Notes: generated by a model from the letters alone, not told the origin. A stretch of DNA of 32,000 bases from Nostoc parmelioides FACHB-3921 (GCF_014696625.1 NZ_JACJQL010000033.1:1-32000); one strand, 5' to 3'. Counted from the stretch's first letter, positions 4,482 through 25,295 are shown. Numbers and translations: made by a program.

Positions 4482-4577
4482 CTACAAATACTTAAATTTT
4501 GGCAAGGCTAAAATTGGTTTTTAGCATTACCAATTACCAACTCCACAGATATCAATTTTTAATTTTGAGGCGCGATG

Positions 4578-4988
4578 TTAGCCAGCCAGACTTTCGAGAA
4601 GATGCCAATGACGACTACCTTCAATCGACTGCTTAACAAGTTCAAATACTTGCCGACAGTGATTATCCAAGTAGAGGGGTAATTCTTCATTTTTAATCAC
4701 AATACTCATCCGGCTTTCTGTCTCAGTAGCCGTTGATTTATCAATCAGTACTTCCACTTTCACCAATTTAGGAAAAGGAACAGTCCCAGGAATCTCACGG
4801 GCCAAAATGTAATCAGGTGTGTGGTATTGAATTTCTAAATCACAGTCCTGTAACAAGTCTAGAAGCAATGGCTGGAGATAGTCGAAACGGATAGAAATCA
4901 CAAATGAACACGTATAGCGAGCCATAATAGCCCCAAGCCCCTTACAACACTCCGTCCATCCTATAATATCGAAGTAGCAAAACGGCAA
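4578..4988 (-). CDS. Hypothetical protein (114-136 aa)
   Basis: Open frame with no repeat content. The more plausible start is the ATG at 4925 (MARYTCSF...). I recognise no motif. Confidence 0.5.
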   Translation of the reverse strand: MPFCYFDIIGWTECCKGLGAIMARYTCSFVISIRFDYLQPLLLDLLQDCDLEIQYHTPDYILAREIPGTVPFPKLVKVEVLIDKSTATETESRMSIVIKNEELPLYLDNHCRQVFELVKQSIEGSRHWHLLESLAG

Positions 4989-5209
4989 GTAATTATAGAT
5001 TCCTTAAACAAAAATGCTGATTTTAGTGGGAGGTGAATTCCGTTGGAATGCTTGACTACAAAGGGATAGGGATTTTGGTAACAGGTAATGGGTGATTGGT
5101 AATTTGACTCTTATCCATTACCTACTGCTAAAGTAGCTTTGGCAATAACTGTATGTTTTTATACGGATAACAAGGCGCATCAAGGGCGGAGTTTAGAAGA
5201 AAAGGTGTT

Positions 5210-5941: not shown

Positions 5942-6085
5942 CGTCTGAGAGTGCGGATATTTGTAAACCCGCCCGTACAGTGGTCAGTAGTCATTAGTTA
6001 TTACCCCCTGCTTCTTCTCCCCGCACCTTAAAGAATCTGTGGCAAGATTGGAATCAGACACAATGCACTCAAGTAGGTAAACTGG

Positions 6086-8209
6086 ATGCTGGGAAACACA
6101 CTTGTTGGAAGATACCAAATTATTAGCCACTTGGGAGGAGGGGGATTTGGTGAAACTTTTGTGGCTTGTGATACTCATCTACCAGGATTACCTAAGTGTG
6201 TAGTGAAAAAACTCCAACCCCAAGCAAACGATTCGGCTACGTTGGAAATAGCCAGGCGATTATTTGATACAGAGGCGCAAGTTTTATATAAGTTGGGAAG
6301 TTGCGATCGCATTCCTCAACTTTTGGCTTATTTTGAGGAGAATGCAGAGTTCTATCTGGTACAGGAATTTATCCCTGGTCACGACCTGAGTAAAGAGTTA
6401 ACGCCAGGAAAAGTCTTTACTCAAGATGAGGTGACAATACTATTACAAGAGATTCTGACCATCTTGGAATTTGTCCATCAGCAAAATGTGATTCACCGTG
6501 ATATTAATCCGCGCAATTTACTCAGGCGACAGGATGGTAAGTTAATTCTCATCGACTTTGGGGCAGTGAAGCAAATCACAACCCAAATAGTGACCCCCAG
6601 TGGTGAAAATAAATCTACTGTGATTATTGGTACACCAGGTTACATACCCGGAGAACAAGCCCAAGGTAATCCCAAATTTAGTAGTGATATCTATGCTGTG
6701 GGGATAGTTGCAATTCAAGCACTGACGGGATTATTACCCCATCAACTAGAACATGATGCTGATACTCATGAAATTATCTGGCAAAATCATGCTCAAGTCT
6801 CGTCAGAGTTTGCCAGATTTATAGACAAAATGGTGTGTTATGATTTCCGCCAACGCTATGGTTCAGCGACGACTGCATTACAAGCACTCACAGAATTAAC
6901 ACAACCAACGTCTGGGACAATCGCCATAACTCCCACTTTACCACCTGCCAAATTTAGATTTAATCACGCTAAAAAAAATATATTCATCAAATTATTATTA
7001 GCAATTTTATTAATTAGTGCGACTGGTACAGCTTCAGTATTTGTTGTCAATAGTATTAATAGTAATAATGCTACAGAATTGGCTAAACAAGGTAATACTT
7101 TTTTTGAATTGCAACGATACAAAGATGCTTTATCTGCTTATAAAAAAGCGGTTGATATTAGACCAGATTATGCTCCTGCTTGGTATGGCAAAGGAAAAAC
7201 TTTATTTCGACTCAAGCAATATCAAGACGCATTGACAGCTTATGATAAAGCCATTCAAATCCAACCAGATTATGTAGAAGCTTGGAGTGGTAGGGGTTTT
7301 AGTTTGCAAAGTTTACAGCGTTATGCAGAAGCGATCGCCTCTTTTGATAAAGCTTTACAACTCAATGAAAATTATCCAGAAGTCTGGAATGCTAGAGGGG
7401 AAGCTTTTAGTAATTTAAAACAGTATGATCAAGCAATTAAATCTTATGATAAAGCTATTGAATTTAACTCAGATGCTTACGAGAGTTTTTATAATAAGGG
7501 ATTAGCTTTGCAAAGCCTCAAAGAATATAATGAAGCCATAAACGCTTATAATAAAGCCATCGAAGTTAAATCAGATTATGAGAGAGCATGGTATAATTTG
7601 GGAAACTCTCTAGTGAATTTAAATCGCTACGAAGATGCTTTTAATGCTTATGATAAAGCAGTACAATATAAAACAGATTATGCTATAGCTTGGTTATCTA
7701 GAGGTAACGTCTTGATTATTTTACGACGCTATCCAGAAGCGATTGAGTCTTTTAATCAAGTTATAAAATTTAATCCTAATAATTATCAAGCATGGTATGG
7801 CAGAGGTTGGTCACAGCATCAAAACCAACGCTATGCAGAGGCGATAGAATCCTATAAGAAAGCGGCAACAATTAAGCCCAGTAATTATCAGGTTTGGTAT
7901 AGTTTAGGCAATTCTCAGTATATTTTACAGCAATATCAAGAGGCGATCGCATCCTATAATAGGGCGGTGCGTTACCGACCAAAGCATATTGAAAGTTGGT
8001 ACAGTCGGGGTAATGCCTTATTTAGTTTAAAACAATACAAAGAGGCGATCGCATCCTATGAACAAGCAATTAAACATAAACCAGATTATAACCAAGCAAT
8101 TAACGCCCGTGACGAAGCCCAGCGTCAACTCCAAGCTGCAACACCAAAACCTGTAGTTATCCCAGTCATGCCTACTCCTGAATTTACTAATCCTCCGCAA
8201 GACAATTAA
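6086..8209 (+). CDS. Hanks-type Ser/Thr protein kinase with a TM segment and about 10 TPR repeats
   Basis: GGGGFGETF glycine loop, VVKKL lysine, HRDINPRN catalytic loop, DFG, GTPGYIPGEQ. A hydrophobic helix IKLLLAILLISATGTASVFVV follows, then 34-aa TPRs (AWYxxGxxLxxLxxYxEAIxxYxKAI). Confidence 0.92.
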   Translation: MLGNTLVGRYQIISHLGGGGFGETFVACDTHLPGLPKCVVKKLQPQANDSATLEIARRLFDTEAQVLYKLGSCDRIPQLLAYFEENAEFYLVQEFIPGHDLSKELTPGKVFTQDEVTILLQEILTILEFVHQQNVIHRDINPRNLLRRQDGKLILIDFGAVKQITTQIVTPSGENKSTVIIGTPGYIPGEQAQGNPKFSSDIYAVGIVAIQALTGLLPHQLEHDADTHEIIWQNHAQVSSEFARFIDKMVCYDFRQRYGSATTALQALTELTQPTSGTIAITPTLPPAKFRFNHAKKNIFIKLLLAILLISATGTASVFVVNSINSNNATELAKQGNTFFELQRYKDALSAYKKAVDIRPDYAPAWYGKGKTLFRLKQYQDALTAYDKAIQIQPDYVEAWSGRGFSLQSLQRYAEAIASFDKALQLNENYPEVWNARGEAFSNLKQYDQAIKSYDKAIEFNSDAYESFYNKGLALQSLKEYNEAINAYNKAIEVKSDYERAWYNLGNSLVNLNRYEDAFNAYDKAVQYKTDYAIAWLSRGNVLIILRRYPEAIESFNQVIKFNPNNYQAWYGRGWSQHQNQRYAEAIESYKKAATIKPSNYQVWYSLGNSQYILQQYQEAIASYNRAVRYRPKHIESWYSRGNALFSLKQYKEAIASYEQAIKHKPDYNQAINARDEAQRQLQAATPKPVVIPVMPTPEFTNPPQDN

Positions 8210-8664: not shown

Positions 8665-9600
8665 ATGCTCACAGCTATTTGTACTTTATTTGAAGGTGAT
8701 TACCACTACGGTGTGGGAAACCTGGTAAATTCTCTCTATCATCACGGTTTTCGTGGTGTAATTTGGGCGGGATATCGGGGTAATTTACCACCTTGGACTG
8801 CATCTGTTAAAAACGATGAAAACTATCAGGAATTTACTGTTGCCCAAGATTGTGTAATTCGTTTTATTAAGTTAGATACTTACAAGTGTTTTACAAACTA
8901 TAAACCAGATTTTATGCTGCAACTCTGGGAAAATTACTGCCCAGAAATTGAAGCAATATTTTATTTTGACCCTGATATTGTCAACAAAAGGCGCTGGGCT
9001 TTTTACGAAGAGTGGGTTGGTAGAGGCATTACTTTATGTGAAGATGCTTATGATTATATGCCTGCCAATGATCCTAATCGCATTGCTTGGCAGGAACTAG
9101 CAGAGCGCCACGGTTATCGTTCTCTTCGGCAATTAGATAGATATTACAATGCAGGTTTTATTGGAGTAAAACAAACTCAAAAAGAAATACTAGTATTGTG
9201 GAAAAATTTGCTAGAAACTTTTGAATCTGCTGGATATTTTGACCTCCATAATTTTCATCTTTATTCGGAGCAATATCCCTATTTTTTAACTGATCAATGT
9301 GTTTTGAATTTAGCAGTAACATTGTCTAATGAACCATTGAGTACTGTTAGCCGCTTGGGTATGGATTTCGGCAATGCCAGTACTTATCTGATGTCCCACG
9401 CATCAGGGGCAGCAATCAAGCCGTGGCGCAAAAAATTGCTTTTAAAAGCTTTGGGTGGCGTTCCTCCAAGCTTGACTGATAAAGCCTATTGGCAACATAC
9501 TCAATCACCAATTCAACTTTATCCGAGACGGTCATACTTGACGAAAAGAATTGAGCTACGCTGCGCGTCTGCTATTGGGCGCTTTATCAGACGTTCTTAG
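8665..9600 (+). CDS. GT8-like nucleotide-diphospho-sugar transferase-fold protein (putative)
   Basis: FYFDPDI (DxD), YYNAGFIGV and DQCVLNLA resemble GT8 motifs. A 455-bp AT-rich gap precedes the gene. The functional assignment is weak. Confidence 0.55.
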   Translation: MLTAICTLFEGDYHYGVGNLVNSLYHHGFRGVIWAGYRGNLPPWTASVKNDENYQEFTVAQDCVIRFIKLDTYKCFTNYKPDFMLQLWENYCPEIEAIFYFDPDIVNKRRWAFYEEWVGRGITLCEDAYDYMPANDPNRIAWQELAERHGYRSLRQLDRYYNAGFIGVKQTQKEILVLWKNLLETFESAGYFDLHNFHLYSEQYPYFLTDQCVLNLAVTLSNEPLSTVSRLGMDFGNASTYLMSHASGAAIKPWRKKLLLKALGGVPPSLTDKAYWQHTQSPIQLYPRRSYLTKRIELRCASAIGRFIRRS

Positions 9601-9709: not shown

Positions 9710-11206
9710 CTAACTCCTGTTATCAATTTGCGCGCGTTGTAAACTGCCGGAAAAGTCTACGTAAACGCTTTTCCATTCTGTGAACACATCTAAAGCGGTG
9801 GTGCCGGCTTCCCGGTGTCCGTTACCGGTTTGTTTGACACCACCAAAAGGTAAGTGTACTTCTGCGCCAATGGTGGGGCCGTTGATGTAGGTGATACCGG
9901 CTTCAATGTCGCGCATGGCAGCAAAGGCGCGATTGATGTCACGGGTGTAGACTGAGGAGGAAAGACCATATTTGGTATCGTTAAGGATAGCGATCGCCTC
10001 TTCAAAGGTGCTAACCTCAATCAATGCCACTACAGGCCCAAATATCTCTTCACGAGCAACGCGCATCTGTGGGGTGACGTTATCTAAAATCGTGGGTTGA
10101 AAAAAGTAGCCCTGTTGTAATTTTCCCTCGGTGGCAATTTCCCCACCGATTAAAATCTTGGCTCCTTCTTCACGGGCAATATTCATATATTCATGTACCC
10201 GTTGCAACTGTCGGTTATTAATTATCGGCCCAATATCTGTCTCAGGTTCATTACCAGCACCCAAACGTAATTGGCTGGCACGTTCACGCAACATGGTTGT
10301 AAATTTTTCTTTGATGTCACGATGTAAAATTAAGCGACTGGTAGCTGTACATCGTTGCCCTGTCGTGCCGAAGGCTCCCCACAATGCCCCATCAAGGGCA
10401 AGTTCTAAATCTGCATCTTCCATCACCACTTGAGCATTTTTCCCGCCCATCTCCAAACAGACGCGCTTGTGAGTGCGTCCACAAGTTTCGCCAACATACG
10501 CACCAGTGGCGGAAGAACCAGTAAATGAAACTAAATCAATTTTTGGATGTTCGACTAAAGCTTTCCCCGCTTCCTCACCCACTCCATGCACCAAGTTAAT
10601 TACGCCCGGTGGTAAACCTGCGGCGGCGAAAATCTCGATTAATTTTGTGGCACAGGCGGGGGTGTCTTCCGCAGGTTTGAGAATCACCGTATTGCCACAA
10701 ACCAAAGCTGGCATTGCTTTCCAGCAAGGAATAGCCACAGGGAAGTTCCAGGGAGTAATTAAAGCACAGACTCCAATGGGCATTCGCACAGTCATGGCGA
10801 ACTTGTTGGGCATTTCCGATGGTGTGGTTTGCCCAAACAACCGCCGTCCTTCACCAGCACTATAAAAGGCGCAGTCAACGCCTTCCTGCACATCGCCCCT
10901 AGCTTCAGTTAAGGGTTTACCCATTTCCCTACTAATGAGCTGGGCTAGTTCTTCTTTATGCTGGAGTAATAATTCGCCGACACGAAAGATATATTCGGCT
11001 CTGGCTGGGGCTGGGACTTTGCGCCAACTGCCATAGGCTTGACGGGCGGCGGCGACGGCTCTATCTACATCGTCAGGTTGGGAACGGGGGAAAGTGGCAA
11101 CAATTTCGCTCTTGTTAGCAGGGTTGTGACTGTTGAGGGTGGTTTCTGTGGCGGCGTTTAACCATTGACCATTGATGTAATTTTGGCAGTTTAGGGGAGT
11201 TTTCAT
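9710..11206 (-). CDS. NAD(P)-dependent aldehyde dehydrogenase family protein
   Basis: 498 aa. LEMGGKNA (catalytic Glu region), FGTTGQRCTA (catalytic Cys), PWNFP, EEIFGPV. Confidence 0.92.
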   Translation of the reverse strand: MKTPLNCQNYINGQWLNAATETTLNSHNPANKSEIVATFPRSQPDDVDRAVAAARQAYGSWRKVPAPARAEYIFRVGELLLQHKEELAQLISREMGKPLTEARGDVQEGVDCAFYSAGEGRRLFGQTTPSEMPNKFAMTVRMPIGVCALITPWNFPVAIPCWKAMPALVCGNTVILKPAEDTPACATKLIEIFAAAGLPPGVINLVHGVGEEAGKALVEHPKIDLVSFTGSSATGAYVGETCGRTHKRVCLEMGGKNAQVVMEDADLELALDGALWGAFGTTGQRCTATSRLILHRDIKEKFTTMLRERASQLRLGAGNEPETDIGPIINNRQLQRVHEYMNIAREEGAKILIGGEIATEGKLQQGYFFQPTILDNVTPQMRVAREEIFGPVVALIEVSTFEEAIAILNDTKYGLSSSVYTRDINRAFAAMRDIEAGITYINGPTIGAEVHLPFGGVKQTGNGHREAGTTALDVFTEWKSVYVDFSGSLQRAQIDNRS

Positions 11207-11208
11207 TT

Positions 11209-11270
11209 GGGGGATAGGGGGATATAGGGGTGTAGGGGTTTAGGGGTGTGGGGGATTAGGGGTTTAGGGG
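11209..11270. repeat. G-rich heptamer-type array (GGGGTNT/TAGGGGT units)
   Basis: gggggatagggggatataggggtgtaggggtttaggggtgtgggggattaggggtttagggg, immediately upstream of the ALDH start codon. Confidence 0.8.
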
Positions 11271-11417
11271 TAAAACTCTTACACCCTTAAACAGTTAAAT
11301 AAGTTTTAAATAAGTTTGGCTTGACTTCTAGGTTATCGTCTAGTTTACGGAATGGACAGGAGACATCAAGACAACCAATCACAGGCAAATTACACAACCA
11401 AACATGAAAATATTTTT

Positions 11418-11483
11418 CCCTTACACCCTTACACCCCCACACCCCTAAACCCTTACACCCTCACACCCCTATACCCCCACACC
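11418..11483. repeat. C-rich array, an inverted copy of the 11209-11270 repeat family
   Basis: cccttacacccttacacccccacacccctaaacccttacaccctcacacccctatacccccacacc. Its reverse complement is the same GGGGTNT family. Confidence 0.8.
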
Positions 11484-11487
11484 ACTA

Positions 11488-12246
11488 TCAAGGCGCTAAT
11501 GCCAAAACTCCCACTGGCGAACCTGAGCCACCGCGTAATCTAAGGATTGCGATCGCCAGATTACTACCTTTTGCTGGTAGTTGATGCAAATTTGTCAAAT
11601 TTTCTAACACAATACCTTGTTGCGCCAATACTAAGCGGTTGGTAGCAAAACTGGTGTCTTGTCCAGGGTCTACCCCATGAGTATCGATTCCTACGCCTGC
11701 AATCTGTCGCTCCTCCAAGAGGAATTGGGTTGCATCGCTACCAAAACCCGGAAAGTGCATGATTCCTGCGGCATCTTGGTTGAGAAAAGCGTTTTTATCA
11801 GACCATTTATTCTGCCAGCCAGTGTGTAGTAATACTACATTACCAATAGGAATTTCACCGTGTTCTGCTTCCCAGGCGAAGATATCATCAATTGTGAGTT
11901 TATAATCGGCGTTGACTGCTGCGGCTGCCTGTATATCTATGACTACAGCAGGGACAATGAGCGACTGAGCCGGGTATTGGTCAATTCCTATACCTGCTTG
12001 ATAAAAACTATTAGGAGCATTGATATGAGTGGCGCTGTGTTCCCCTATCGAGAAGCCCCGTAGATAATAGCCATCATCAGGGAGTTGGGCAACGGTGGTA
12101 AATTCAATGGGAGGGTCGCCAGGCCATTGGGGAATACCTGGGTCAATTATATGACTTAAGTGAATCACGCGGGAGTATGCGATCGTTTTTAAGCTTGACA
12201 CTCTAATCACCCACTGCAAAAATGTCTCACCATCAGAACCTACCAC
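11488..12246 (-). CDS. Cyclase-family (kynurenine-formamidase-like) metal-dependent hydrolase
   Basis: HSATHINAP matches HxGTHxDAP, and GVGIDTHGVDPG matches the second metal-binding region. GTG start lies 15 bp downstream of the WD40 gene stop. Confidence 0.8.
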   Translation of the reverse strand: MVGSDGETFLQWVIRVSSLKTIAYSRVIHLSHIIDPGIPQWPGDPPIEFTTVAQLPDDGYYLRGFSIGEHSATHINAPNSFYQAGIGIDQYPAQSLIVPAVVIDIQAAAAVNADYKLTIDDIFAWEAEHGEIPIGNVVLLHTGWQNKWSDKNAFLNQDAAGIMHFPGFGSDATQFLLEERQIAGVGIDTHGVDPGQDTSFATNRLVLAQQGIVLENLTNLHQLPAKGSNLAIAILRLRGGSGSPVGVLALAP

Positions 12247-12261
12247 TTATTTTGCTAGACT

Positions 12262-15200
12262 CTATCGCCCAGGAGTTTGGCATGACGGCAGCTCTTCTAA
12301 AACCTGTGGATGGGCTATCAGATAATTATTCAGCAAGTTGCAACCAGAGTGTAATAAGTTATCGAAATATAAATCCCAGAAAATGATGGTTTTATCACCA
12401 CCTGCGGTAGCTAACTGTTTACCATCGGGGCTGTAGATGATGCTTCTCACCCAATCACTATGACCAGTGAGAGTTTTTAGGACTTGACCACTGTTGACAT
12501 CCCAAATTTTAATTGTGTTGTCACGACTGGCGGAAGCTAATTGTTGTCCGTCGGGGCTGTAAGCGACGCTTCTCACCCAATTGCTATGACCAGAGAGAGT
12601 TTTTAAGGGTGTACCTCTGCTTACATCCCAAATTTTGATGTTATCACTGGCGGCAGCTAACTGTTTACCATCGGGACTGTAGACAACGCTTTTGACTGAA
12701 TTCTGATGACCAGAGAGAGTTTTCAGGAGTTTACCATTGTTGACATCCCAAATTTTGATGGTTTTGTCGTCGCTGGCGGAAGCTAATTGCTTTCCATCAG
12801 GGCTGTAGGTGACACTCCTCACCCAACTGCTATGACCGAAGAGAGTTTTTAGAAGTTGACCACTGTTGACATCCCAAATTTTGATTGTTGTGTCACCACT
12901 AGCGGAAGCTAATTGTTGTCCATCGGGGCTGTAGGCGACACTAATCACCCTATCTTGATGACCAAGGAGAGTTTTTAAGGGTTGACCAGTACTGACATCC
13001 CAAATTTTGATGGTTTTGTCGCTACTAGCGGAAGCTAATTGTTTTCCATCGGGGCTGTAGGTGATGCTTCTGACCCAATCACTATGACCAGAAAGAGTTT
13101 TGAGGGTTTGACCAGTGCTAATATCCCAAATTTTGATGATGTTGTCACCACTACCGGAGGCTAATTGTTTTTCCCTGGGACTGTAGGCGATGCTGATAAC
13201 AGAATCATTATGACCATAGAGTATTTTTAAGGGTTTACCGATGCTGATATCCCAGATTTTGATGGTCTTGTCACCACTGGCGGATGCTAATTGTTTGCCA
13301 TCGGGACTGTAGGCAATACTATAGACTGAATTGCTGTGACCGGAGAGGGTTTTCAGGAGTTGACCACTGCCGACATCCCAAATTTTGATGGTCTTATCAC
13401 CACTGACAGAAACTAACTGTTGTCCATTGGGACTGTAGGCGATGCTATAAACAGGCTGGTCATGACTAGAGAGAGTTTTCAGGAGTTGACCATTGCTGAT
13501 GTCCCAAATTTTGATGGTCTTGTCGCTACTGGCGGAGGCTAAATGTTTGCCGTCGGGGCTGTAAGCAATACTAATTACCCCATCACTATGACCAGAAAGA
13601 GTTTTCAGGAGTTGACCACTGTTGATGTCCCAAATTTTAACTGTCTTGTCTCGACTAGCGGAAGCCAATTGTTTTCCATCAGGACTGTAGGTAACGCTTC
13701 TTACTGCATGATTATGGCCAGAGAGAGTTTTTAGGCTTTTACCAATGTTAATATCCCAAATTTTAACTGTCTTATCATCACTGGCAGAAGCTAATTGTTG
13801 TCCATCGGGACTATAGGCGATGCTGATGACGGAATCACGATGACCAAAGAGGGTTTTCAGGCTTTTACCACTGCTGATATCCCAAATTTTAATTGTCTTA
13901 TCACCACTACCAGAAGCTAATTGTTGCCCATCGGGACTATGGGCGATGCTGATGACGGAATCATTATGACCGGAGAGGGTTTTTAGGAGTTGACCATTGT
14001 TAATATCCCAAATTTTAACTGTCTTATCACCGCTACCAGAGGCTAACTGTCGTTTTTGTGGGGCAAAGGCGACACTACTCACCCAATTTTCATGACCTGC
14101 CAAAGTATTCACCTCTGTGGCACGATTTTCTTTATATTCATTGGGCTGTAAGTAGATAGCTCGCTGTAAAGTTGCCGCAGTTTGTATTGTGGCAGAACTT
14201 TTTTCTCTCTCCCACGGTGTACCCTTGAGTTTGTTAGCTGCTTTTAGTGCTTCTATCAAAGCATCAGGATATTGTTTAGAGACAAAAAAAGCTTCTGAAG
14301 AATTATTCAAGGCGTTAATTTCGTTAATTCCGGCGCTAATTTCGGCGTTTTGTGTCTGTTTTTTGGCTTCATTTGCTAACTGCACTGCTAAAGCGGTTAA
14401 AACAACAATACCTATACCCACAGCCACTGAACTAAACAAAGCACGTTGTAGAAAGCGGTAAAGTTTGGCTTCACTTAGTTTTCTTTGCTCTCTTTCTTTG
14501 TCCAGTTCCGCTATCACCTGTTTTAATTTTTGTTGTTGTTGCTGGCGGATAAAGGCGGCTAAATAGTCATGCACCAATTGATAACGGTCAGTGGGTTTTT
14601 CTGGGAGCAAAACAACTAAGCCAGATTTGACGAAAATATCTAAAACTAAATCGAATTGCTGGAGAGTTAAGATTTGCTCATTTCTCACAGGCTGTTGTGA
14701 AGATTTTGGCGTAATTTTGCCCTGTTTTTGCCGTGGTATTGGGGAAATTTGTGCAGATTCCACATCATAAGCAGAAAAATATTGCTGAAAATCCCGTTCT
14801 AATTCCCCCCGTGTCTTTAGGGGACGAGTTCCTCTTTCATCGGTCAGAGAATACAGCAGAAACTCCGCCAATTGCTGATTTTCTTCGCCGCAGTCATGGA
14901 TAACCTCATTTAAATAATGCTGCACTAAGTCTTGTTTGGTGCCGAAACGCCGATATTTTTCTAAGGTGGTGATATTCTCGGTTTGTAATTGCGCTCCCAC
15001 AATTTGCAACTCAATGGGGCGAACTTCACCCAATTCTCCTGCTAAATCTTCTACCAGTGCATCTATTAAGTCAGGTTCTAAGTTAAAGCTAGTATTTGCA
15101 GTTAGACGCTGGATAATTGACTTTGTATCATTGGGGGAGAAGTTTCCCAACTTGTAAAGCACGTTATTACTAAGAATGTCATTACCAATAATCTGAAATT

Positions 15201-17157
15201 CCGGCAAATCATTACATTCCAGTAAATAATGGATGTAATCTACCCGCAGCGATAAAATAACTTTCACTGAAAGAACGTGCAGACATTCCCCCAGAAACTC
15301 AAAAAACTGCTTTCGTTGTCCTAGTTCGGGGTAAACGAAGAAAAATTCCTCAAATTGGTCAAACACTAACACTGTGCGGAGGTTGCGTTGTTCATTTTCA
15401 CGCAACTGGGCGATGAGGAACGAGGAGACAATAGGTTCTGAACTCGAACGTTGGGTTTCTCCTTCTCCTTTTCCCCCATCCTTTATCAAAATGCGCGCCA
15501 ACTCTTGCAGCCAGTTGGTGTAAACACGCATAACGACGACTAAATTATCTTGCACACCAATGGCTTTTTTCTTTAAAGCGGGAACTAAACCTGCATTAAT
15601 GAGGGAACTTTTACCCACACCCGATTGCCCATGAATGACTATCAATTTATAATCAGGGCGACCGACGCGTTCTATTAAACGTTCTACATCTAATTGACGA
15701 CCAGATGCAGCAATTTCTAAGGCAATATTATCTTGTAGAGAAGTTGTAGGTAAGGTTTCTAAATGTGTTTGCTTACGTGCTTCTAATCTTCCTGCGCCAA
15801 TAAAAGCCCGCAAGCCAAATTGTTGTTCAATGGAAAGTAATTGCTGTTTAATTTCATAGGCTGCAAGATATTTTTTTTGAGTGAAATAAACATTATGTAA
15901 ATAACTGAGAATATGCAGATAAAGCCTGACATCTTCTTGAGGATTTAACTTATTTATAGCATCTTCTAAGTTAGCGATCGCCTGGGGAATTTGCCCTAAA
16001 TTATATTGAGAGCAACCCTGAATAAATCTATATAAGCTTAATTCTGGTGCTGAGAGTGGATTATCTGATTTATCGGCTGATATAAAATCTAATGCTTGGT
16101 TAATTAATTGATTTGCCTGTCGCCAATTTTTTTCGGCTAAAGCCACATCTGCTAAACAAGCATAATTCCTAGCAATTTCTCTATTATTATTATCTGCTTG
16201 ATGAATGATTAAAGCTTTTTGAGATAGCTTTTCCAACTGTTCCCAATCGTTAAGATTACGTAAGATTATAGCTAACTTATAAAGAGATTTAGCAATTAAA
16301 TCTGCGCGTTGAATCTGGTTAATAAAATCGATATATGCTTGAGTATAACGCCTCGTATTATGCCAAGATATATGATTAATATCTTGATATTTATAACTTT
16401 GAATATAATAACAAAAAGCAATCTCTAAAAGAATAAATTCTTGAGGTTTAATTAAATCAAGCTTTTGCCATAAATCACCAGCCCGATGATAATATAACAA
16501 CGCATCTGTAACTTTATTGATATTCTTGTTAATCAAGCCCAGCAATGATAATAAATTAGCCGCTAATTCTATATTATCTATCTGTCCATCTATAAACAAA
16601 TCTCTTTGGGCTGCTAATAACTCAGTTTCTAGCTTGAGTGATTCATGAAAAGTCAGTTTAGTCTGATCACTCAAATATTGATGAGCCGTTTCAAGAATAA
16701 AATCAGTTAATTGTTGTCGGTCAATAGGGAAATTTTTCGTAACTGCCCAACTTTCTAAATCAGGTGCAACTTGAATTAATTGTTTATAGATTTCATCATC
16801 AATCCACAACACCAAAGGGAAATGAAAATGCTGGCGGAACTCCTCGCGCACTTGATTGGCTGAACTTAACATCACTGCTAAATCCTGCACTTTTTCCAAC
16901 CCGATAACCATCACACAACCAAGAATCTCTGCGCCAAATTCATCCCGAATGGCAGTATAGAGGGTTTTATCAGATTGCTGGACTTCCAAGACGCAAATTT
17001 CCGCTTGGCAAATTTCTTGTAATCTTTTGATTAAGCGATCGCGCAAGCTGGCATAATTACACCGTGCCAAAATCAACTTAAACTGCCCTACAGAAGCATC
17101 AATCGCCCAAGCTAATTGTTGCAGAGAGCGATCGTTATTCACTAAATCATTTGTCAT
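12262..17157 (-). CDS. Giant STAND-type protein: unassigned N-terminal domain, TPR-like helical repeats, nSTAND-like P-loop NTPase, TM helix, 14 WD40 repeats
   Basis: Walker A GQSGVGKSSLINAGLVP (DNA about 15608-15640), Walker B VLVFDQFEEFF, hydrophobic helix ALFSSVAVGIGIVVLTALAVQLA, then 14 units of GHxxxVxSVAYSPDGxQLASASxDKTIKIWD. Confidence 0.92.
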   Translation of the reverse strand: MTNDLVNNDRSLQQLAWAIDASVGQFKLILARCNYASLRDRLIKRLQEICQAEICVLEVQQSDKTLYTAIRDEFGAEILGCVMVIGLEKVQDLAVMLSSANQVREEFRQHFHFPLVLWIDDEIYKQLIQVAPDLESWAVTKNFPIDRQQLTDFILETAHQYLSDQTKLTFHESLKLETELLAAQRDLFIDGQIDNIELAANLLSLLGLINKNINKVTDALLYYHRAGDLWQKLDLIKPQEFILLEIAFCYYIQSYKYQDINHISWHNTRRYTQAYIDFINQIQRADLIAKSLYKLAIILRNLNDWEQLEKLSQKALIIHQADNNNREIARNYACLADVALAEKNWRQANQLINQALDFISADKSDNPLSAPELSLYRFIQGCSQYNLGQIPQAIANLEDAINKLNPQEDVRLYLHILSYLHNVYFTQKKYLAAYEIKQQLLSIEQQFGLRAFIGAGRLEARKQTHLETLPTTSLQDNIALEIAASGRQLDVERLIERVGRPDYKLIVIHGQSGVGKSSLINAGLVPALKKKAIGVQDNLVVVMRVYTNWLQELARILIKDGGKGEGETQRSSSEPIVSSFLIAQLRENEQRNLRTVLVFDQFEEFFFVYPELGQRKQFFEFLGECLHVLSVKVILSLRVDYIHYLLECNDLPEFQIIGNDILSNNVLYKLGNFSPNDTKSIIQRLTANTSFNLEPDLIDALVEDLAGELGEVRPIELQIVGAQLQTENITTLEKYRRFGTKQDLVQHYLNEVIHDCGEENQQLAEFLLYSLTDERGTRPLKTRGELERDFQQYFSAYDVESAQISPIPRQKQGKITPKSSQQPVRNEQILTLQQFDLVLDIFVKSGLVVLLPEKPTDRYQLVHDYLAAFIRQQQQQKLKQVIAELDKEREQRKLSEAKLYRFLQRALFSSVAVGIGIVVLTALAVQLANEAKKQTQNAEISAGINEINALNNSSEAFFVSKQYPDALIEALKAANKLKGTPWEREKSSATIQTAATLQRAIYLQPNEYKENRATEVNTLAGHENWVSSVAFAPQKRQLASGSGDKTVKIWDINNGQLLKTLSGHNDSVISIAHSPDGQQLASGSGDKTIKIWDISSGKSLKTLFGHRDSVISIAYSPDGQQLASASDDKTVKIWDINIGKSLKTLSGHNHAVRSVTYSPDGKQLASASRDKTVKIWDINSGQLLKTLSGHSDGVISIAYSPDGKHLASASSDKTIKIWDISNGQLLKTLSSHDQPVYSIAYSPNGQQLVSVSGDKTIKIWDVGSGQLLKTLSGHSNSVYSIAYSPDGKQLASASGDKTIKIWDISIGKPLKILYGHNDSVISIAYSPREKQLASGSGDNIIKIWDISTGQTLKTLSGHSDWVRSITYSPDGKQLASASSDKTIKIWDVSTGQPLKTLLGHQDRVISVAYSPDGQQLASASGDTTIKIWDVNSGQLLKTLFGHSSWVRSVTYSPDGKQLASASDDKTIKIWDVNNGKLLKTLSGHQNSVKSVVYSPDGKQLAAASDNIKIWDVSRGTPLKTLSGHSNWVRSVAYSPDGQQLASASRDNTIKIWDVNSGQVLKTLTGHSDWVRSIIYSPDGKQLATAGGDKTIIFWDLYFDNLLHSGCNLLNNYLIAHPQVLEELPSCQTPGR
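12340..14100 (-). repeat. 14 tandem 126-bp (42-aa) WD40 units with high DNA-level identity
   Basis: Aligned by eye from the translation. Unit 12 is one codon short (AAASDN-IKIWD). Confidence 0.9.
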
Positions 17158-17164
17158 TTGTTAT

Positions 17165-17262
17165 TTGTTGTTGGTCAATAGTCAATAGTTAATAGTTCAT
17201 AGTTATTCTTCTTTACTCCCCCTGCTCCCCCTGCTCGCCTGCCCCCTGCTCCCCCTGCTCCC
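17165..17262. repeat. Intercistronic repeat block: TCAATAG-type heptamers, then CCCCCTGCT units (G5 runs on the sense strand)
   Basis: ttggtcaatagtcaatagttaatagttcatagtt ... ctccccctgctccccctgctcgcctgccccctgctccccctgctccc. Confidence 0.85.
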
Positions 17263-18615
17263 TCATCCCCCCATCTCCTTTGCGCCAATCAAAATGGGAT
17301 TGACATCAAACCAAGACTCGCCGCCATCTCGATATTCAAAGACAAAACGACTACGGATGAGTTTTTGGTAGCCGTGGTCATCGCTAACTTTTTTCTTCTG
17401 TTGGACATGGCGTAATAATTGCCATTCTTCTTCGGAAATTGGCAAAATCATTTCGTTGCGACGGGAACGAATAACTTGTTCTAAAGTATTGCGGGTGAGG
17501 GGAAGCGCCATTTCTTCCATAATCCAGCTATTCAGGAGCCGCAGCAAGTCACGCACATGACCACCACTCAAGATACATAAACGCTTTAAGGTGTCAGCAC
17601 TATCAAAAATCTCAGAAATTTTGTCTAGGCGTTGTTCTGGTTGCAAGTCAGGAAAGGCTCTGGCTAATACCATCTGTTGCATCAGCTCCATTCCTTGCTC
17701 ATGCACCCTACCATCAGGCCAATGTAAGGGAACCATAGGTAATACTTTGGGGTCTTCGGGAAAGCGCTGAGTCAGCATTCCGTAATCGTTGGAAAACTTG
17801 AGAGACAGGGGCATGGTGTAGACTAGATGACAATTTAACTTGGTGAGATATTCACCTTGGTCTACAAATAAATATTCCTGCTGGGGTCGTCCCCAAGACT
17901 TAGGACGGTTATCTATGCGGTCGAGGTTATCGACAATGACAACTAGACCATTTTTACCTTGTTGTTTGAGTTTAGCGATCGCCGGCTGCAATAATTCTTG
18001 ATTAATCGCTTCCAACAGCTTGATTTTTTGCGGTGCGAGATATTGATTGATTTTCTCTCGTAGTGTGGGGTCACTTTTAATTTTGGTGGTGATTTCACCA
18101 ATACCTACAGATAGAGATAACTTTTCTTGCTCTACACTGACACCGACATCACCCACTACGGGAACTTTGGTTTTAATCCCCGTCACCTCAGAGTTTAAAA
18201 CCTTCCATGCACCTAGTAGCAAATCATTAAATTTGTGAGTCTCCCCCAGAGTGATTTTATCCAAACTTTGGCTCACACGCCGAGCGATCGCCAACAACAC
18301 ATCGGCTATATCAACATCGGTCATTTCTAAGTCATCACTAGACTCAAAATAAACTACATGAAAGCCTAACTTTTCTAATTCTGCTTGTAAGCGGATGAGT
18401 TCCGTCGATTTACCACAACCAATATGTCCTGTAAATAAAGTGCAGGTAGGTTCATCTGGCTTAAAAAAAGTAATCTTTTGTTTGAGCTTACCGATAATAT
18501 CGCCGCCACGCACCGAAGAAAAGTCAATGTAGTATTTTTTATCTGTGTCCTGATTGAGAAATAGAGTCCGACTAGGGTCTGTAGCCTGAAAAAATCCCCG
18601 TAAATCTATAGCCAT
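17263..18615 (-). CDS. P-loop NTPase of unassigned family (450 aa)
   Basis: Walker A TGHIGCGKSTEL (DNA about 18404-18430) and Walker B-like LVVIVDNLDRI. I recognise no other domain. Confidence 0.85.
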   Translation of the reverse strand: MAIDLRGFFQATDPSRTLFLNQDTDKKYYIDFSSVRGGDIIGKLKQKITFFKPDEPTCTLFTGHIGCGKSTELIRLQAELEKLGFHVVYFESSDDLEMTDVDIADVLLAIARRVSQSLDKITLGETHKFNDLLLGAWKVLNSEVTGIKTKVPVVGDVGVSVEQEKLSLSVGIGEITTKIKSDPTLREKINQYLAPQKIKLLEAINQELLQPAIAKLKQQGKNGLVVIVDNLDRIDNRPKSWGRPQQEYLFVDQGEYLTKLNCHLVYTMPLSLKFSNDYGMLTQRFPEDPKVLPMVPLHWPDGRVHEQGMELMQQMVLARAFPDLQPEQRLDKISEIFDSADTLKRLCILSGGHVRDLLRLLNSWIMEEMALPLTRNTLEQVIRSRRNEMILPISEEEWQLLRHVQQKKKVSDDHGYQKLIRSRFVFEYRDGGESWFDVNPILIGAKEMGG

Positions 18616-18803
18616 AAGTTTAGTAATCTAGTTCTCTTGGCAACCCTGTATAACAGTGATTACCAAGATAAGAGTACTAATAGGAATTCGTAATTCGTAG
18701 TAATCCGTAAAATTAGCGCAAAAAGCTAAAACCTTGATTTACGGGAAAAACCAAGGTTAGGGTATGGGTGTTAAATTTTGGTAGGTGCGTTATGGTTTCA
18801 TGT

Positions 18804-20158: not shown

Positions 20159-21382
20159 ATGCTACTAGGATTTAAGACAGAACTCAAGCTCAATAATAAG
20201 CAGCGCACTCAGTTGTCAAGGCACTGTGGCGTTGCAAGACACGCTTGGAACTGGGGACTGTCTTTAACTAAGCAGATACTTGACCACAACAAAATCAACC
20301 CAGAAGAGAAAATTAAATTTCCTTCAGCAATTGACCTGCATAAGTGGTTGGTAGCGATGGTAAAGCCTGAGCATCCCTGGTATTTTTATGTGTCAAAGTG
20401 CGCACCTCAATATGCCTTGCGTGACTTGCGAACAGCGTGGGATAGGTGTTTCAAGAAAGTGTCGGGTGTTCCTAAGTTTAAAAAGAAAGGGAAATTTGAC
20501 TCATTCGAGTTGGATGGAACCATTAAAATTCGTGGAACACGCAAAATCCAACTTCCCCGACTAGGTGCATTAAAAACCTATGAAGATTTGCCCCAGGTTC
20601 AACCCAAGTCAGTCACCATCAGCCGTACTGCTGACCGTTGGTACATTTCCTTTCGGATTGAGGTAGAGCCAAGGGACACGCCCAAAACAATTGATGTTGT
20701 AGGCGTTGACCTTGGCGTTAAATCCCTCGCCACACTTTCCACTGGTGAAGTGCTTGAAGGTGCAAAATCCTACCGCAAACTAGAGGCGAAACTATCTAGA
20801 CTCCAGTGGTTGAATCGTCACAAGCAACGCGGTTCAGCCAACTGGAGAAAAGCGCAAATCAAAATTGCAAAGCTGCATCAACGCATAGCCAACATCCGCA
20901 AAGACACATTACACAAACTTACTACCTATCTAGCCAAGAACCACGGCGTGATAGTGATTGAGGATTTAAACGTGTCTGGGATGATGGCGAACAGGAAGTT
21001 AGCTAAGGCAATAGCTGATATGGGCTTCTATGAGTTCCGTCGTCAGCTAGAGTACAAAACTCAGCTTTACGGTAGTGAGCTAGTAGTTGTAGACAGGTTC
21101 TACCCCAGTAGTAAAACCTGCTCCAATTGCGGAACAAAGAAAGAATCTCTATTACTATCAGAACGTGTTTTCAAATGCGAAAACTGCGGTTTTGAGTGTG
21201 ATAGAGACTTGAACGCCGCAATTAATTTGAGCCACTGCGTTGCTTTGGTTCCCAAAGTTGTAGCAAGTGGCGTGTCTAAGGCGGTGAGTCACGCCGTGCC
21301 AGCTTGTGGAGTGGATAACGCCGACGTTGCCACAGTGAAGCAAGAAGATTTCAGTTTGTTAGCAAACGTTAGTAAATTATGA
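20159..21382 (+). mobile_element. tnpB: IS200/IS605-family (IS1341-type) TnpB, an RNA-guided RuvC nuclease; no tnpA is present
   Basis: N-terminal GFKTELKLNNKQRTQL, RuvC D (VGVDLGV), E (VIVIEDLNV) and D (CDRDLNAAINL), zinc finger CSNCG...CENCG, and a typical tail ...ACG...VKQE. Confidence 0.92.
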
Positions 21383-21400
21383 ACGGATGTTTGTATGATA
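21230..21400 (+). ncRNA. Expected position of the TnpB omega (right-end) RNA scaffold; boundaries not determined
   Basis: Placed only by analogy with characterised TnpB loci, where the guide RNA overlaps the tnpB 3' end. A small hairpin gtttg-ttag-caaac lies at 21354-21367. Confidence 0.25.
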
Positions 21401-22921
21401 ACTACAAGCAATCAAACAACTCCAGAGAGCGATCGCCACTCTGAAAATATAGCAAAAATGGCCCCTGTTGGCATATTTCATGCAGACTTAGCGGGTAATT
21501 GTCTTTATGTCAACGAGCGTTGGTGTGAAATGTCTGGTCTTTCTCCAAAACAATCATTGGGTCGAGGTTGGCAGGTAGCTATTCATCCAGATGATTTGAA
21601 ACTATTACAGGCGCAAGCCCGGTTTATTTTGTCACAGCAGAAGTCATATAAAGCTGAGTTGCGCTTGCAAGACCCTCAAGGCAAAATTACTTGGGTATTA
21701 TCAGAAGCAGTAGCAGAAATTGACGAAAATGTTCGCATAGTCGGTTATATCGGCACAGTAGTCGATATTAGTGAACGTCACCAGATAGAAGAAGCATTGC
21801 GTGAAAGTGAAGAACGATTCGCAATGATGGCGAATAATGCACCTGTGATGATTTGGATGTCAGGATTAGACAAACTCTGCAATTTTTTTAATCAAGGCTG
21901 GCTAGACTTCACAGGACGCACAATGACAGAAGAATTAGGTAATGGTTGGGTAGAAAGCGTGCATCCAGAAGACCGAGAATGTTGTATTCACACATATACT
22001 GCGGCCTTCGACCATCGAGAAATTTTCATGATGGAATATCGCCTCAAACGTTTTGATGGTCAATATCGCTGGATTTTCGATACGGGTACACCCAGATTTA
22101 ATTCAGATGGTAGTTTCGCTGGTTATATAGGTTCCTGTGTTGATATTAACCCCCGCAAGCAAGTAGAAATTACCCTCCAACAACGAACCAAACAACTGAC
22201 CCGCTTAAATACTATCCTGGCGAAAACCACCACGTTGTTGCAACAACGCAATCAAGAATTAGACCAGTTTGCTTATGTTGCATCCCATGATTTAAAAGCA
22301 CCTTTACGGGCGATCGCTAGTTTATCAGAATGGTTAGAAGAAGACCTCGCCGACCAACTTCCCGAAGAAAATCAACATCAGATGCAGTTGTTACGGGGTC
22401 GGGTGCGGCGCATGGAAGCCTTAATTGATGGTCTACTGGAATATTCGCGTATTGGCCGCGTCCACACAGAATTAACACAGGTCAATGTGGACTCATTACT
22501 CAGGGAAGTAATCGACTCGTTGCAACCACCAGCAAGCTTTCACATCGAAATCCAGCCAAAAATGCCTACTTTAGTCACAAAGAGAGTTCCCTTACAACAG
22601 GTGTTCGCTAACTTAATCGAAAATGCCATTGAACACCACACACGAATCGATGGTAGGGTGAAAATTTCGGTGCGAGATTTAGGGAAATACTACGAATTTA
22701 GTGTGGAAGATGATGGCCCTGGCATACCTGTAGAATATCAGGATAAAGTTTTTGTAATTTTTCAAACTCTTGAACCGCGCGATCGCAAAGAAAATACGGG
22801 GATTGGTTTGGCGATCGTCAAAAAAATTGTCGAAACGGAAGGGGGTTCCATTAATTTGAAGTCTGTCTTTGGGACTGGAAGCACATTTTGTTTTACTTGG
22901 CCTAAACGTTCTCTTGAGTAA
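21395..22921 (+). CDS. Soluble PAS-PAS sensor histidine kinase
   Basis: Two PAS/PAC regions (GIFHADLAGNCLYVNERW; MIWMSGLDKLCNFFNQGW), H-box ASHDLKAPLR, N box NLIENAIEH, G boxes DDGPGI and GIGLAIVKKI. Confidence 0.9.
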   Translation: MITTSNQTTPESDRHSENIAKMAPVGIFHADLAGNCLYVNERWCEMSGLSPKQSLGRGWQVAIHPDDLKLLQAQARFILSQQKSYKAELRLQDPQGKITWVLSEAVAEIDENVRIVGYIGTVVDISERHQIEEALRESEERFAMMANNAPVMIWMSGLDKLCNFFNQGWLDFTGRTMTEELGNGWVESVHPEDRECCIHTYTAAFDHREIFMMEYRLKRFDGQYRWIFDTGTPRFNSDGSFAGYIGSCVDINPRKQVEITLQQRTKQLTRLNTILAKTTTLLQQRNQELDQFAYVASHDLKAPLRAIASLSEWLEEDLADQLPEENQHQMQLLRGRVRRMEALIDGLLEYSRIGRVHTELTQVNVDSLLREVIDSLQPPASFHIEIQPKMPTLVTKRVPLQQVFANLIENAIEHHTRIDGRVKISVRDLGKYYEFSVEDDGPGIPVEYQDKVFVIFQTLEPRDRKENTGIGLAIVKKIVETEGGSINLKSVFGTGSTFCFTWPKRSLE

Positions 22922-23216: not shown

Positions 23217-23708
23217 ATGAATAATTATTCACGAATTAGCGATCCTCCTATAAAAAGCATAGTTTCTATACAAAAAATGCAGGAAAGAGTGATTAACATA
23301 CTATTAGTGGAGGATGATGAAGTTGATGTTATGAATGTCAAACGAGCATTCCAAAAAGTTAATATCACTAATCCTATTTACTTAGCAGATAATGGCTTAG
23401 AGGCTTTAAAAATTTTGCGTGGTGATCATGCTCAAACGCCAAAGTTTACCAATGAGCGTCGTCTAATTCTGCTAGACTTAAATATGCCTAAAATGGGTGG
23501 TATTGAATTCTTGCAAAAATTAAGAGCCGACCCCCAACTACGACTAACTCCCGTAGTTGTGATGACGACATCAAACCAGGATAAAGACCGTGTAGAAGCT
23601 TACAACTTAAACGTTGCTGGTTATATCCTCAAGCCTGTAACATTCTCTAATTTTGTAGAAATAATAGCAGCACTCAATAAATATTGGGTATTCTGTGAAA
23701 TGCCTTAG
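23217..23708 (+). CDS. Single-domain CheY/Rcp1-like response regulator
   Basis: ILLVEDDEVD, ILLDLNMPKMGG and a conserved KP. The likely true start is the Met of MQERVINILL, near 23277. Confidence 0.88.
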   Translation: MNNYSRISDPPIKSIVSIQKMQERVINILLVEDDEVDVMNVKRAFQKVNITNPIYLADNGLEALKILRGDHAQTPKFTNERRLILLDLNMPKMGGIEFLQKLRADPQLRLTPVVVMTTSNQDKDRVEAYNLNVAGYILKPVTFSNFVEIIAALNKYWVFCEMP

Positions 23709-23936
23709 TCGGTCTGACTATAGTAGTTTTAACTTATATGAATTATCTCCTATTAGGTTGTTCTAAACAAAATGAGAAACACTGATTTTTATGTTTGATA
23801 TTGAGAATCAGACCTGCTCAATTCAAATATGAAAACTAACAAAGACTATATTCAAGAAAATCAAATTTTTAATTGAACAATTTAAAATCAGAAATGTTTG
23901 AAATCAACCTGTATTTGGCAGCAAATATAAAAACCG

Positions 23937-25268: not shown

Positions 25269-25295
25269 ATTTATATATATAACAAATTTATTATC

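Follow-up and report, generated by a model that had tools for sequence, protein, structure and literature searches.

A conserved two-gene module of cyanobacteria as a candidate split NLR/STAND-like switch

The 32,000-nt stretch of Nostoc parmelioides FACHB-3921 DNA analysed here (NZ_JACJQL010000033.1:1-32000; the window, to which coordinates refer unless another locus is named) carries on its minus strand a gene for a small ATPase, followed by the gene for a giant partner protein (Table 1). The partner consists, in order, of a domain that we model as a catalytically dead member of the AAA+ fold (the N-domain), a TPR-like region, an nSTAND1 NTPase, a transmembrane (TM) helix and 14 WD40 blades. 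A first-pass annotation of the same DNA had described the two genes, the spacer between them, their nucleotide-binding motifs, the five parts of the giant protein, a hydrolase gene downstream and a NarL-type regulator gene upstream, and all of these lie where it had placed them. In 80 genome loci with an ATPase 82-85% identical to that of the window, the ATPase gene was followed in every case by an orthologue of the giant gene on the same strand, while the other neighbours found in the window were never adjacent; the functional unit is therefore the two genes only.

Table 1. Features of the gene pair in the window
Feature	Coordinates	Strand	Basis or remark
Gene 1, ATPase, 450 aa	17263..18615	-	Open reading frame; NCBI MBD2253541.1 "P-loop NTPase fold protein"
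Walker A GHIGCGKST, aa 63-71	18403..18429	-	Invariant, both among 36 orthologues and across the distant branch
Walker B LVVIVDNLDR, aa 224-233	17917..17946	-	D229, N230, L231, D232, R233 invariant (36 orthologues)
Lid motif SGGHVRD, aa 350-356	17548..17568	-	S350-D356 all invariant (36 orthologues)
C-terminal helical bundle and beta-hairpin, aa 375-450, winged-helix-like	17266..17493	-	AlphaFold2 secondary structure
Intergenic spacer, 105 bp	17158..17262	.	Short tandem repeats throughout
Gene 2, giant partner, 1631 aa	12262..17157	-	Open reading frame; NCBI MBD2253540.1 "beta-propeller domain-containing protein"
N-domain, aa 1-165, modelled as degenerate AAA+ alpha/beta	16663..17157	-	AlphaFold2 and Foldseek
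Helical TPR-like region, aa 166-465	15763..16662	-	Weak TPR_12, TPR_2 and TPR_MalT matches
nSTAND1 NTPase module, aa 486-786	14800..15702	-	PF20703, E=7.9e-37, 128.2 bits vs cut-off 27.1
TM helix, aa 906-928	14374..14442	-	19-residue Kyte-Doolittle mean 2.45
14 WD40 repeats, two propellers	12364..14121	-	Pfam WD40, 14 stretches, E=6e-181

The ATPase and its giant partner

The product of gene 1 appears to be an active, small and soluble NTPase whose active-site motifs are intact. Its Walker B motif is of the KAP-like D-x-L-D-R type, without a catalytic Glu after the Asp, a configuration that fits a slow switch and not a motor. The SGG..R of the lid motif is invariant also in a distant branch of the family described below, and its Arg is sensor-2-like. 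Neither the protein as a whole nor its insertion contains a TM segment (maximal 19-residue Kyte-Doolittle mean 0.87). In the AlphaFold2 (AF2) model, an AAA+ core is interrupted between Walker A and Walker B by a helical insertion of about 120 residues (~100-222), and is followed by a lid and by a C-terminal winged-helix hairpin (helical residues 375-421, strands 425-430 and 433-438). The best Foldseek matches of this model in the PDB were Orc1/Cdc6 (2qby_A, E=6e-5) and ORC structures, down to E=5e-4, at a TM-score of ~0.2 and a model pLDDT of 66; HslU and RuvBL, themselves AAA+ proteins with insertions, were matched as well.

Sequence searches placed the ATPase close to several NTPase families. 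The Pfam model ATPase_2 (PF01637) scored 24.9 bits, under its cut-off of 33.2, and rose above the cut-off in some relatives (P0128, 42.1; P0145, 35.1; P0169, 46.3). The KAP model (PF07693) gave a borderline 20.1 bits against a cut-off of 20, and 21.5-31.5 bits in the relatives P0130, P0140, P0145, P0147 and P0177 and in the paralogue at locus L082. The nSTAND5 model remained at 18.8 bits, under its cut-off of 34, and PF20702 (nSTAND2), which is present in the library searched, did not match at E<=0.01. In a profile search of the PDB, the KAP NTPase 8fnu was the sole match to cover the region from Walker A to Walker B, all others being local to the P-loop; a single-sequence search of the PDB returned nothing meaningful. 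NCBIfam yielded nothing but a 15-bit local match to DS41_1_antiphage, to which we give no interpretation. By sequence the ATPase resembles KAP proteins and by fold Orc1/Cdc6, but none of these families claims it cleanly, and it maps to no characterised housekeeping family.

At the head of the giant protein lies a domain that the first-pass annotation had noted for its missing P-loop. This part of the description holds, the beta1-alpha1 loop reading RCNYAS at the place of Walker A; what had been overlooked is the fold. The AF2 model is confident (pLDDT 87, pTM 0.83, with 47 homologues in the alignment) and consists of a five-stranded alpha/beta domain followed by helices. Foldseek matched it to Rad17, the AAA+ domain of Sir3, Orc3, Elg1, the clamp-loader delta subunit and TnsC (TM-score ~0.5, E=2e-4), with non-catalytic AAA+ modules among the top matches. 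The N-domain is thus confidently modelled as a degenerate, catalytically dead AAA+ domain. It belongs to no named family: a Pfam search gave no match, PF20702 did not match residues 1-463 of the giant protein at E<=1, and a PDB profile search returned TPR matches only and no sequence relative. The motifs ANQVREEFR (residues 100-108) and APDLESW (131-137) of the window protein correspond to the family-wide patterns N-Q-x-R-E-x-F-R (101-108) and A-P-D-x-x-x-W (131-137). An arginine finger was considered and is not claimed, since the Arg preceding A-P-D-F, invariant in the distant branch, is Val in the window type. The search for N-domain homologues returned short or fragmentary proteins only (its word index favours short ones), and these were used for the alignment and not for architectures.

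The TPR-like region that follows is the least conserved part of the protein (37-54% identity among Nostoc orthologues), and its best match, to TPR_12 at E=4.7e-6, is below the Pfam cut-off. The central module, by contrast in score, is established as a bona fide nSTAND1, as the first-pass annotation had assigned it (Table 1). Both its Walker A (GQSGVGKSS, residues 510-518) and its Walker B (VLVFDQFEE, residues 596-604) are intact, and upstream of the P-loop it carries a GR-x-x-x-x-E type motif (ASGRQLDVERL, residues 484-494), which is said to be a hallmark of STAND proteins. Searches with Pfam and PADLOC found no N-terminal effector or adaptor domain in the giant protein, the dead AAA+ and TPR-like parts standing in its place.

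The hydrophobic segment between nSTAND1 and the WD40 repeats is kept in 31 of 32 complete orthologues. Lys and Arg residues number 5.05 on average in its N-terminal flank against 1.53 in the C-terminal one, with an N-terminal excess in 59 of 60 proteins. From this charge distribution, the positive-inside rule predicts a cytoplasmic location for the NTPases and an extracytoplasmic one for the WD40 propellers. The repeats are 42 residues long (one is of 40) and share a mean mutual identity of 60%. Variability is concentrated at few positions (after GH, in V-x-S, at the x of S-x-D and after WD) on a near-invariant scaffold; from general knowledge of WD40 propellers, we read these positions as a diversified binding face. 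The number of repeats varies among the giant orthologues, which span 956-2006 residues.

Two further observations concern the DNA of the pair. The spacer is composed of repeats with a period of 7 (GTCAATA / AATAGTT type) and of 9/16 (CTCCCCCTG type). The GC content is 0.34 in the interval 16001..17000, which codes for the N-domain and TPR region, versus 0.45 in 17001..18000, within the ATPase gene; it is 0.41-0.45 across the WD40-coding part. The low value could reflect amino-acid composition or a separate history of this segment.

Conservation of the pair across cyanobacteria

Each of the 80 loci was searched with every protein of the window's neighbourhood. Identity of the giant orthologues was 59-77% in the N-domain and 54-83% in nSTAND1, on either side of the more variable TPR region, and the distance between the two genes was 73-1190 nt, with a median of 240. 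Numerous contigs stop within the WD40 repeats, in itself an indication of the constant presence of the repeat gene. The cyclase-fold hydrolase, the aldehyde dehydrogenase and the TnpB protein encoded near the pair were without a match throughout the 80 loci. The NarL regulator and the PAS kinase likewise had no adjacent orthologue there: the regulator gave only weak receiver-domain matches of 25-31% identity, in four loci and at distances above 3 kb, and the kinase gave weak matches far from the pair in a few (24-33% identity for the weak matches of the two proteins together). All five candidates were rejected as members on this ground. The hydrolase, which the first-pass annotation had offered as a possible effector, and the NarL regulator, which it had noted upstream, are unrelated neighbours; between the regulator, upstream of the ATPase gene on the same strand, and that gene lies a terminator-like hairpin (18758..18730). 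The sole other recurrent neighbours are leuC/leuD-like genes, found by open reading frame (ORF) clustering upstream on the divergent strand in 44 of the 80 loci. They are absent from the window and were therefore set aside as a third gene and attributed to local synteny.

The ATPase belongs to a large family, with 2720 clusters (50% identity) at E<=1e-3 and 300 at E<=1e-30. Named relatives among the matches listed are all cyanobacterial, except for one Acidisarcina plasmid copy; they are annotated merely as "P-loop NTPase fold protein" or "hypothetical", with no defence database entry. The protein is 98% identical in Trichormus variabilis and 73-85% identical among the other Nostocales-type matches listed. 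In Moorena producens (locus L081), an ATPase of 58% identity is followed by an N-domain ORF and then by a TPR-nSTAND1-TM-WD40 ORF of 38% identity. Here the partner is divided (10001..14785 of the L081 locus, CP017599) into a 234-residue N-domain ORF and a 1337-residue remainder. The division may be natural, or may reflect a frameshift or a pseudogene, and several short proteins that consist of the N-domain only and are encoded in complete genomes (P0274, P0275, P0298, P0312 and P0317) may be of this kind too. On plasmid pREB2 of Acaryochloris marina, an ATPase of ~50% identity and an 1830-residue TPR-nSTAND1-WD protein are encoded by genes that overlap by 4 bp. A plasmid of Calothrix sp. NIES-4101 (AP018277.1, locus L082) carries an ATPase paralogue, an ATPase-TIR fusion and then a 1300-residue partner in which nSTAND1 is combined with the N-domain (hhalign probability 100%, E=1.8e-45). 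The first 235 residues of that partner, ahead of the N-domain, had no Pfam match, and within a few kb of the trio there are three extra TIR_2 genes (1..2414 and 10244..10960 of the locus).

More distant still is a branch whose ATPases are only ~34% identical to that of the window. In one of its members (L085, from a metagenomic contig of 319 kb), the two genes abut, stop to start, at 9356/9357, and the 996-residue partner joins a long TPR array to the N-domain (hhalign probability 97%, E=1.2e-10), with neither nSTAND1 nor WD40. To scan metagenomes for this branch, a profile of 9 ATPase sequences was used, one of 36 diverse ATPases being too divergent, and loci with at least 600 nt downstream of the ATPase were scored (n=68). 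An N-domain ORF lies directly downstream on the same strand in 64 of the 68, and directly upstream in one more. Of the 43 complete partners, 40 are made of the N-domain and TPRs alone (198-1092 residues), and 27 partners match the Pfam TPR-S sensor model. In some loci (L118, L120, L121, L122 at about 4050-7913, and L112) N-domain ORFs flank the ATPase on both sides, a long one upstream and one of 198 residues downstream, which suggests that one ATPase serves two sensor partners.

Since the pairing is kept in these loci without the nSTAND1-WD40 part, the invariant partnership is that of the ATPase with a dead-AAA+/TPR protein and not with the nSTAND1-WD40 portion. The latter, absent from the distant, P0205-type branch, was found among the loci examined in Nostocales, Moorena and Acaryochloris, and nSTAND1 additionally in the Calothrix plasmid partner. 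The proposal of the first-pass annotation that the ATPase is paired with a STAND protein must be amended accordingly: adjacency and functional coupling are borne out, and what is conserved is the N-terminal head of the partner and its TPRs. The two components were also found joined in single polypeptides, in three of 150 representative ATPases (P0126, N-domain then ATPase; P0261, ATPase then N-domain; and P0186, of deletion type). Taken over independent loci of two distant branches, 80/80 and 64/68, the pairing is far beyond chance.

Other fusions link the ATPase family to conflict-type signalling. TIR_2 domains are fused to the relatives P0190 and P0177, and CHAT together with a TRADD-like N domain to P0166, whose setting is mobile-element-like (ArdA, UvrD helicase); a second STAND-type NTPase with TPRs is fused to P0128, P0145, P0169 and P0180. 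In the passages retrieved from two papers (PMC7159879, PMC8195603), TIR, CHAT and TRADD-N figure as effector or adaptor domains of NTP-dependent conflict systems of multicellular bacteria. The suggestion of the first-pass annotation that the ATPase supplies the missing output gains support from these relatives.

The genomic distribution shows several paralogous pairs per genome, both branches being present together in Nostoc "cyanobiont 232" and in Aetokthonos. Members of the distant branch, likewise cyanobacterial, are found in unicellular taxa too (Rippkaea PCC 8801, Microcystaceae). Nostoc sp. UHCC 0251 has two contigs of the window type (L025, L056) and Nostoc sp. UHCC 0302 has copies on three plasmids (CP151100-CP151102), each ~79-84% identical to the window ATPase. 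The Acaryochloris copy is located between HicAB and RelE/ParE modules, with two integrases and a NACHT gene. As the first-pass annotation had held, no named defence system is recognised: in PADLOC-DB v2 neither protein matched any system model significantly, the ATPase giving PDC-S20 at 22 bits (E=2.4e-5) and mad8 at 14.6 bits and the giant protein only a generic TPR model at a marginal E=1.6e-3. Among phage sequences, PHROGs yielded two functionless families. We also looked by eye for a short amyloid-like motif shared by the ATPase C-terminus and the partner N-terminus, of the kind that accompanies NLRs in filamentous bacteria, and none was evident.

Signalling genes abound in the rest of the window. 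At 457..2787 (+), read from a GTG start, lies the gene for another STAND protein, unrelated to the first and 776 residues long, with an NB-ARC (AP-ATPase) domain (E=3.5e-16) and a long TPR_12/TPR_10 array. It is followed by a eukaryote-like signalling cluster at 3956..8209, made up of an FHA protein (3956..4423, +), a rhomboid protease (5210..5941, -) and a serine/threonine kinase (STK) with ~10 TPRs (6086..8209, +), and by a 311-residue ORF (8665..9600, +) with no Pfam match at E<=1e-4. On the other side of the pair, within 20159..22921 (+), a TnpB gene (IS200/IS605 RNA-guided endonuclease, NF040570, E=8e-96) has no tnpA nearby and is followed after 12 nt by the PAS-PAS histidine kinase gene. 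A run of two-component genes (23217..26405, +, and 29521..31863, -) encodes a stand-alone receiver, two receiver-HisKA-HATPase hybrids and a hybrid with GAF, histidine kinase, two receiver and Hpt domains. Rfam models identified the small RNA (sRNA) NsiR8 (206 bits) and a cyanobacterial heterocyst sRNA (87 bits) at 29060..29231 (+) and 29379..29434 (+), between an SBP_bac_5 gene and the hybrid GAF histidine kinase.

A putative composite switch and the alternatives

With moderate confidence, we propose that the pair, a conserved cyanobacterial module, acts as a split NLR/STAND-like switch in conflict, immunity or cell death. According to this proposal, the active ATPase would dock onto the dead AAA+ domain of its partner, and the two would together form a composite, slowly hydrolysing nucleoside triphosphate switch, much as active subunits combine with inactive ones in ORC and clamp loaders. 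The module would thus be a STAND protein divided in two, one polypeptide contributing the nucleotide-binding module with lid and winged helix, and its partner the repeat sensor. In the window protein, nSTAND1 may be a second switch in series: a ligand bound by the predicted extracytoplasmic propellers would cause nSTAND1 to oligomerise at the membrane, and the oligomer would cluster the dead-AAA+/TPR heads, which in turn would recruit or activate the ATPase. The ATPase may be the output arm, since the ATPases of relatives carry TIR or CHAT and TRADD-N; in the effector-less version of the window, the output may come from the oligomerised ATPase or from an unlinked factor.

What speaks for an NLR-like role in conflict, immunity or cell death is the context of the family: the TIR, CHAT and TRADD-N fusions, the paralogous pairs, the megaplasmid copies near toxin-antitoxin, integrase and NACHT genes and the fast-evolving sensors. 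Several points weigh against this proposal. The ATPase is much better conserved than usual immune genes (73-85% among the Nostocales-type matches listed); leuC/leuD-like housekeeping genes adjoin the pair in 44 of the 80 loci, and an effector domain is absent both in and beside the module of the window. PADLOC matches on 113 flanking ORFs (Cas6/Cas8, MkoA, PD_DExK and PDC candidates) are scattered and form no uniform defence island, and they were counted with no control set. No homologue was found in the phage collection or in BFVD, by DNA or by fold, and there is therefore no sign of a phage origin. As to the mechanism, the contact between ATPase and N-domain derives from synteny and fusions only, the extracytoplasmic position of the WD40 repeats solely from hydropathy and the positive-inside rule, and the AF2 model of the ATPase is mediocre (pLDDT 66, Foldseek TM-scores ~0.2). 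The Nostoc-type spacer is long, and co-transcription of the pair is therefore not assured.

One may speculate further that the pair represents a new split-NLR family with many paralogous pairs in cyanobacteria, in which the window protein is a transmembrane NLR that exposes its WD40 propellers to the periplasm or lumen and relays danger or non-self via nSTAND1 to the ATPase. We regard it as rather unlikely that this fuller model is true in its entirety.

An alternative that we regard as less likely but quite possible is that the same two-gene switch has a housekeeping or developmental role, as a membrane receptor of filamentous cyanobacteria that passes a periplasmic, envelope or intercellular cue from the WD40 propellers to the ATPase and from there, for example through its winged helix, to physiology. 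High conservation of the ATPase across Nostocales, the chromosomal position next to leuCD-like genes in many loci and the lack of an effector domain in the window module would all fit such a receptor, as would the signalling-rich surroundings in the window, with STK-TPR, FHA and rhomboid proteins, histidine kinases, response regulators and heterocyst-related sRNAs. STAND NTPases are, moreover, also transcription regulators, according to the parts of PMC7159879 that were retrieved. However, the fusion of ATPase relatives to TIR, CHAT and TRADD-N is not what a developmental receptor would lead one to expect. Nor are several paralogous pairs per genome with copies on megaplasmids (three in one strain), the Acaryochloris copy amid toxin-antitoxin modules, integrases and a NACHT gene, or sensor regions that evolve fast compared with a conserved core. 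The P0205-type branch, furthermore, includes unicellular hosts, and the ATPase/N-domain core is therefore not bound to filamentous life.

It is improbable, in our estimate, that the ATPase is instead a dedicated chaperone or assembly factor of its repeat-rich partner, like MoxR in the MoxR-vWA systems, remodelling the dead-AAA+/TPR head or holding it off. The strict pairing with the N-domain and TPRs, whatever else the partner carries, and an AAA+ fold with an inserted domain, as in HslU or RuvBL, are what such a factor would show, and threshold-setting pairs of an ATPase and a co-chaperone are a known theme in the retrieved parts of PMC7159879. Against this, the Walker B motif is without the catalytic Glu that is typical of remodelling AAA+ motors, and the TIR and CHAT domains carried by the ATPase itself in relatives are a better fit to an output role.

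We give very little credence to a wider module in which the cyclase-fold hydrolase, the NarL regulator or both supply the effector. In its longest reading, the hydrolase ORF (PF04199, E=1e-40) begins with GTG, 15 nt past the stop of the giant gene, on the same strand and with no terminator between them. Yet neither gene has an adjacent orthologue in the 80 loci, the hydrolase is missing at the loci of Moorena, Acaryochloris and Calothrix and at the metagenomic ones, the hairpin separates regulator from ATPase, and the hydrolase adjoins the aldehyde dehydrogenase gene, suggesting a metabolic pair. That the two genes are unrelated and neighbours by chance, as the long repeat-filled spacer of the Nostoc-type loci might be taken to indicate, is hardly credible given their constant adjacency in both branches, the overlapping or abutting genes elsewhere and the direct fusions.

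Relation to known systems and significance

Among the closest described systems is the nSTAND2 pair, in which genes for an active and an eroded NTPase are adjacent and a hetero-oligomeric ring is predicted (Kaur, Iyer, Burroughs & Aravind 2021, PMC8195603; as given in the retrieved passages of that paper). As there, the window pairs an active ATPase with an adjacent inactive N-domain, and the setting is that of the conflict systems of multicellular bacteria. However, the window ATPase has no PF20702 match and is of another NTPase family. Its inactive module is carried on TPR or TPR-nSTAND1-TM-WD40 proteins, whereas in those passages that of nSTAND2 is carried on GT4 or HEPN effectors; effectors, if any, are on the active ATPase in the window family, and the lineage of the window adds the nSTAND1-TM-WD40 receptor.

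The iSTAND/iSTAND2 ternary systems (MoxR-vWA with an inactive STAND; PMC7159879, PMC8195603), as far as the retrieved passages describe them, similarly keep an inactive STAND/AAA+ module constant beside sensor repeats, are enriched in cyanobacteria and share the repertoire of TIR, caspase-like and TRADD-N domains in the wider family. They differ in that no MoxR or vWA is found in the genes of the window or in the called genes of L081-L085, L166 and L167, and in that the partner ATPase is of another family, in a system of two components and not the three described in those passages. Resemblance to KAP proteins (PF07693, and the RADAR RdrA-type KAP NTPase 8fnu) is in the large insertion of the ATPase and its D-x-L-D-R Walker B; unlike in classical KAP, the insertion has no TM helices, the model score is borderline (20.1 vs 20), and the lid, winged helix and best folds are Orc1/Cdc6-like. 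Both domains, finally, find their best-matching structures among ORC/Cdc6 and clamp-loader proteins, the non-catalytic Orc3, clamp-loader delta and Sir3 AAA+ domain included, and the principle of mixing active and inactive AAA+ modules is common to these assemblies and the pair, but the likeness is at fold level only (11-16% identity, TM-scores 0.2-0.5) and there is no replication context.

The giant protein also resembles nSTAND1 and NLR-like proteins (Apaf-1-like, Avs), with its nSTAND1, its C-terminal WD40 sensor and the hypervariable-surface pattern of the latter. It differs at the N-terminus, where a dead AAA+ domain and TPRs, the proposed recruiter of a separate ATPase, are found and no effector or effector-associated domain, and in the TM helix that parts its NTPase from a sensor predicted to be extracytoplasmic. 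STAND and NLR proteins are normally single polypeptides that combine an effector, a nucleotide switch and a repeat sensor, and they are thought to sense intracellular ligands. The split design and the predicted extracytoplasmic sensor are therefore the unusual features of the module. It has the look of a split form, so far undescribed, of the immune or cell-death switches of multicellular bacteria.

The pair is undescribed in the keyword-retrieved passages of the Aravind-lab papers and of a 2026 STAND survey, and full-text searches of the literature, by locus (Ava_155x, Q3MCV6) as well as by KAP, STAND, WD40 and TPR in cyanobacteria, returned no description of it.

The architecture suggests a division of labour in which a minimal ATPase is coupled to sensors via a pseudo-AAA+ docking domain. 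In such a design, one ATPase family could serve many TPR or WD40 sensors and itself bear the effector (TIR, CHAT), and the membrane-spanning layout of the window protein would give it an extracytoplasmic WD40 sensor. The conserved motifs provide genetic handles on both components, namely K69 and D229/D232 of the ATPase and R104/R108 and W137 of the N-domain. If the transmembrane-NLR reading is true, this would be the first receptor of STAND/NLR type shown to sense extracytoplasmically. If the pair is an immune or cell-death switch, it would represent a new organisational principle for NLR-like immunity in bacteria; if its role is that of a developmental receptor, the Nostocales would have in it a signalling device that is widely conserved and unstudied.

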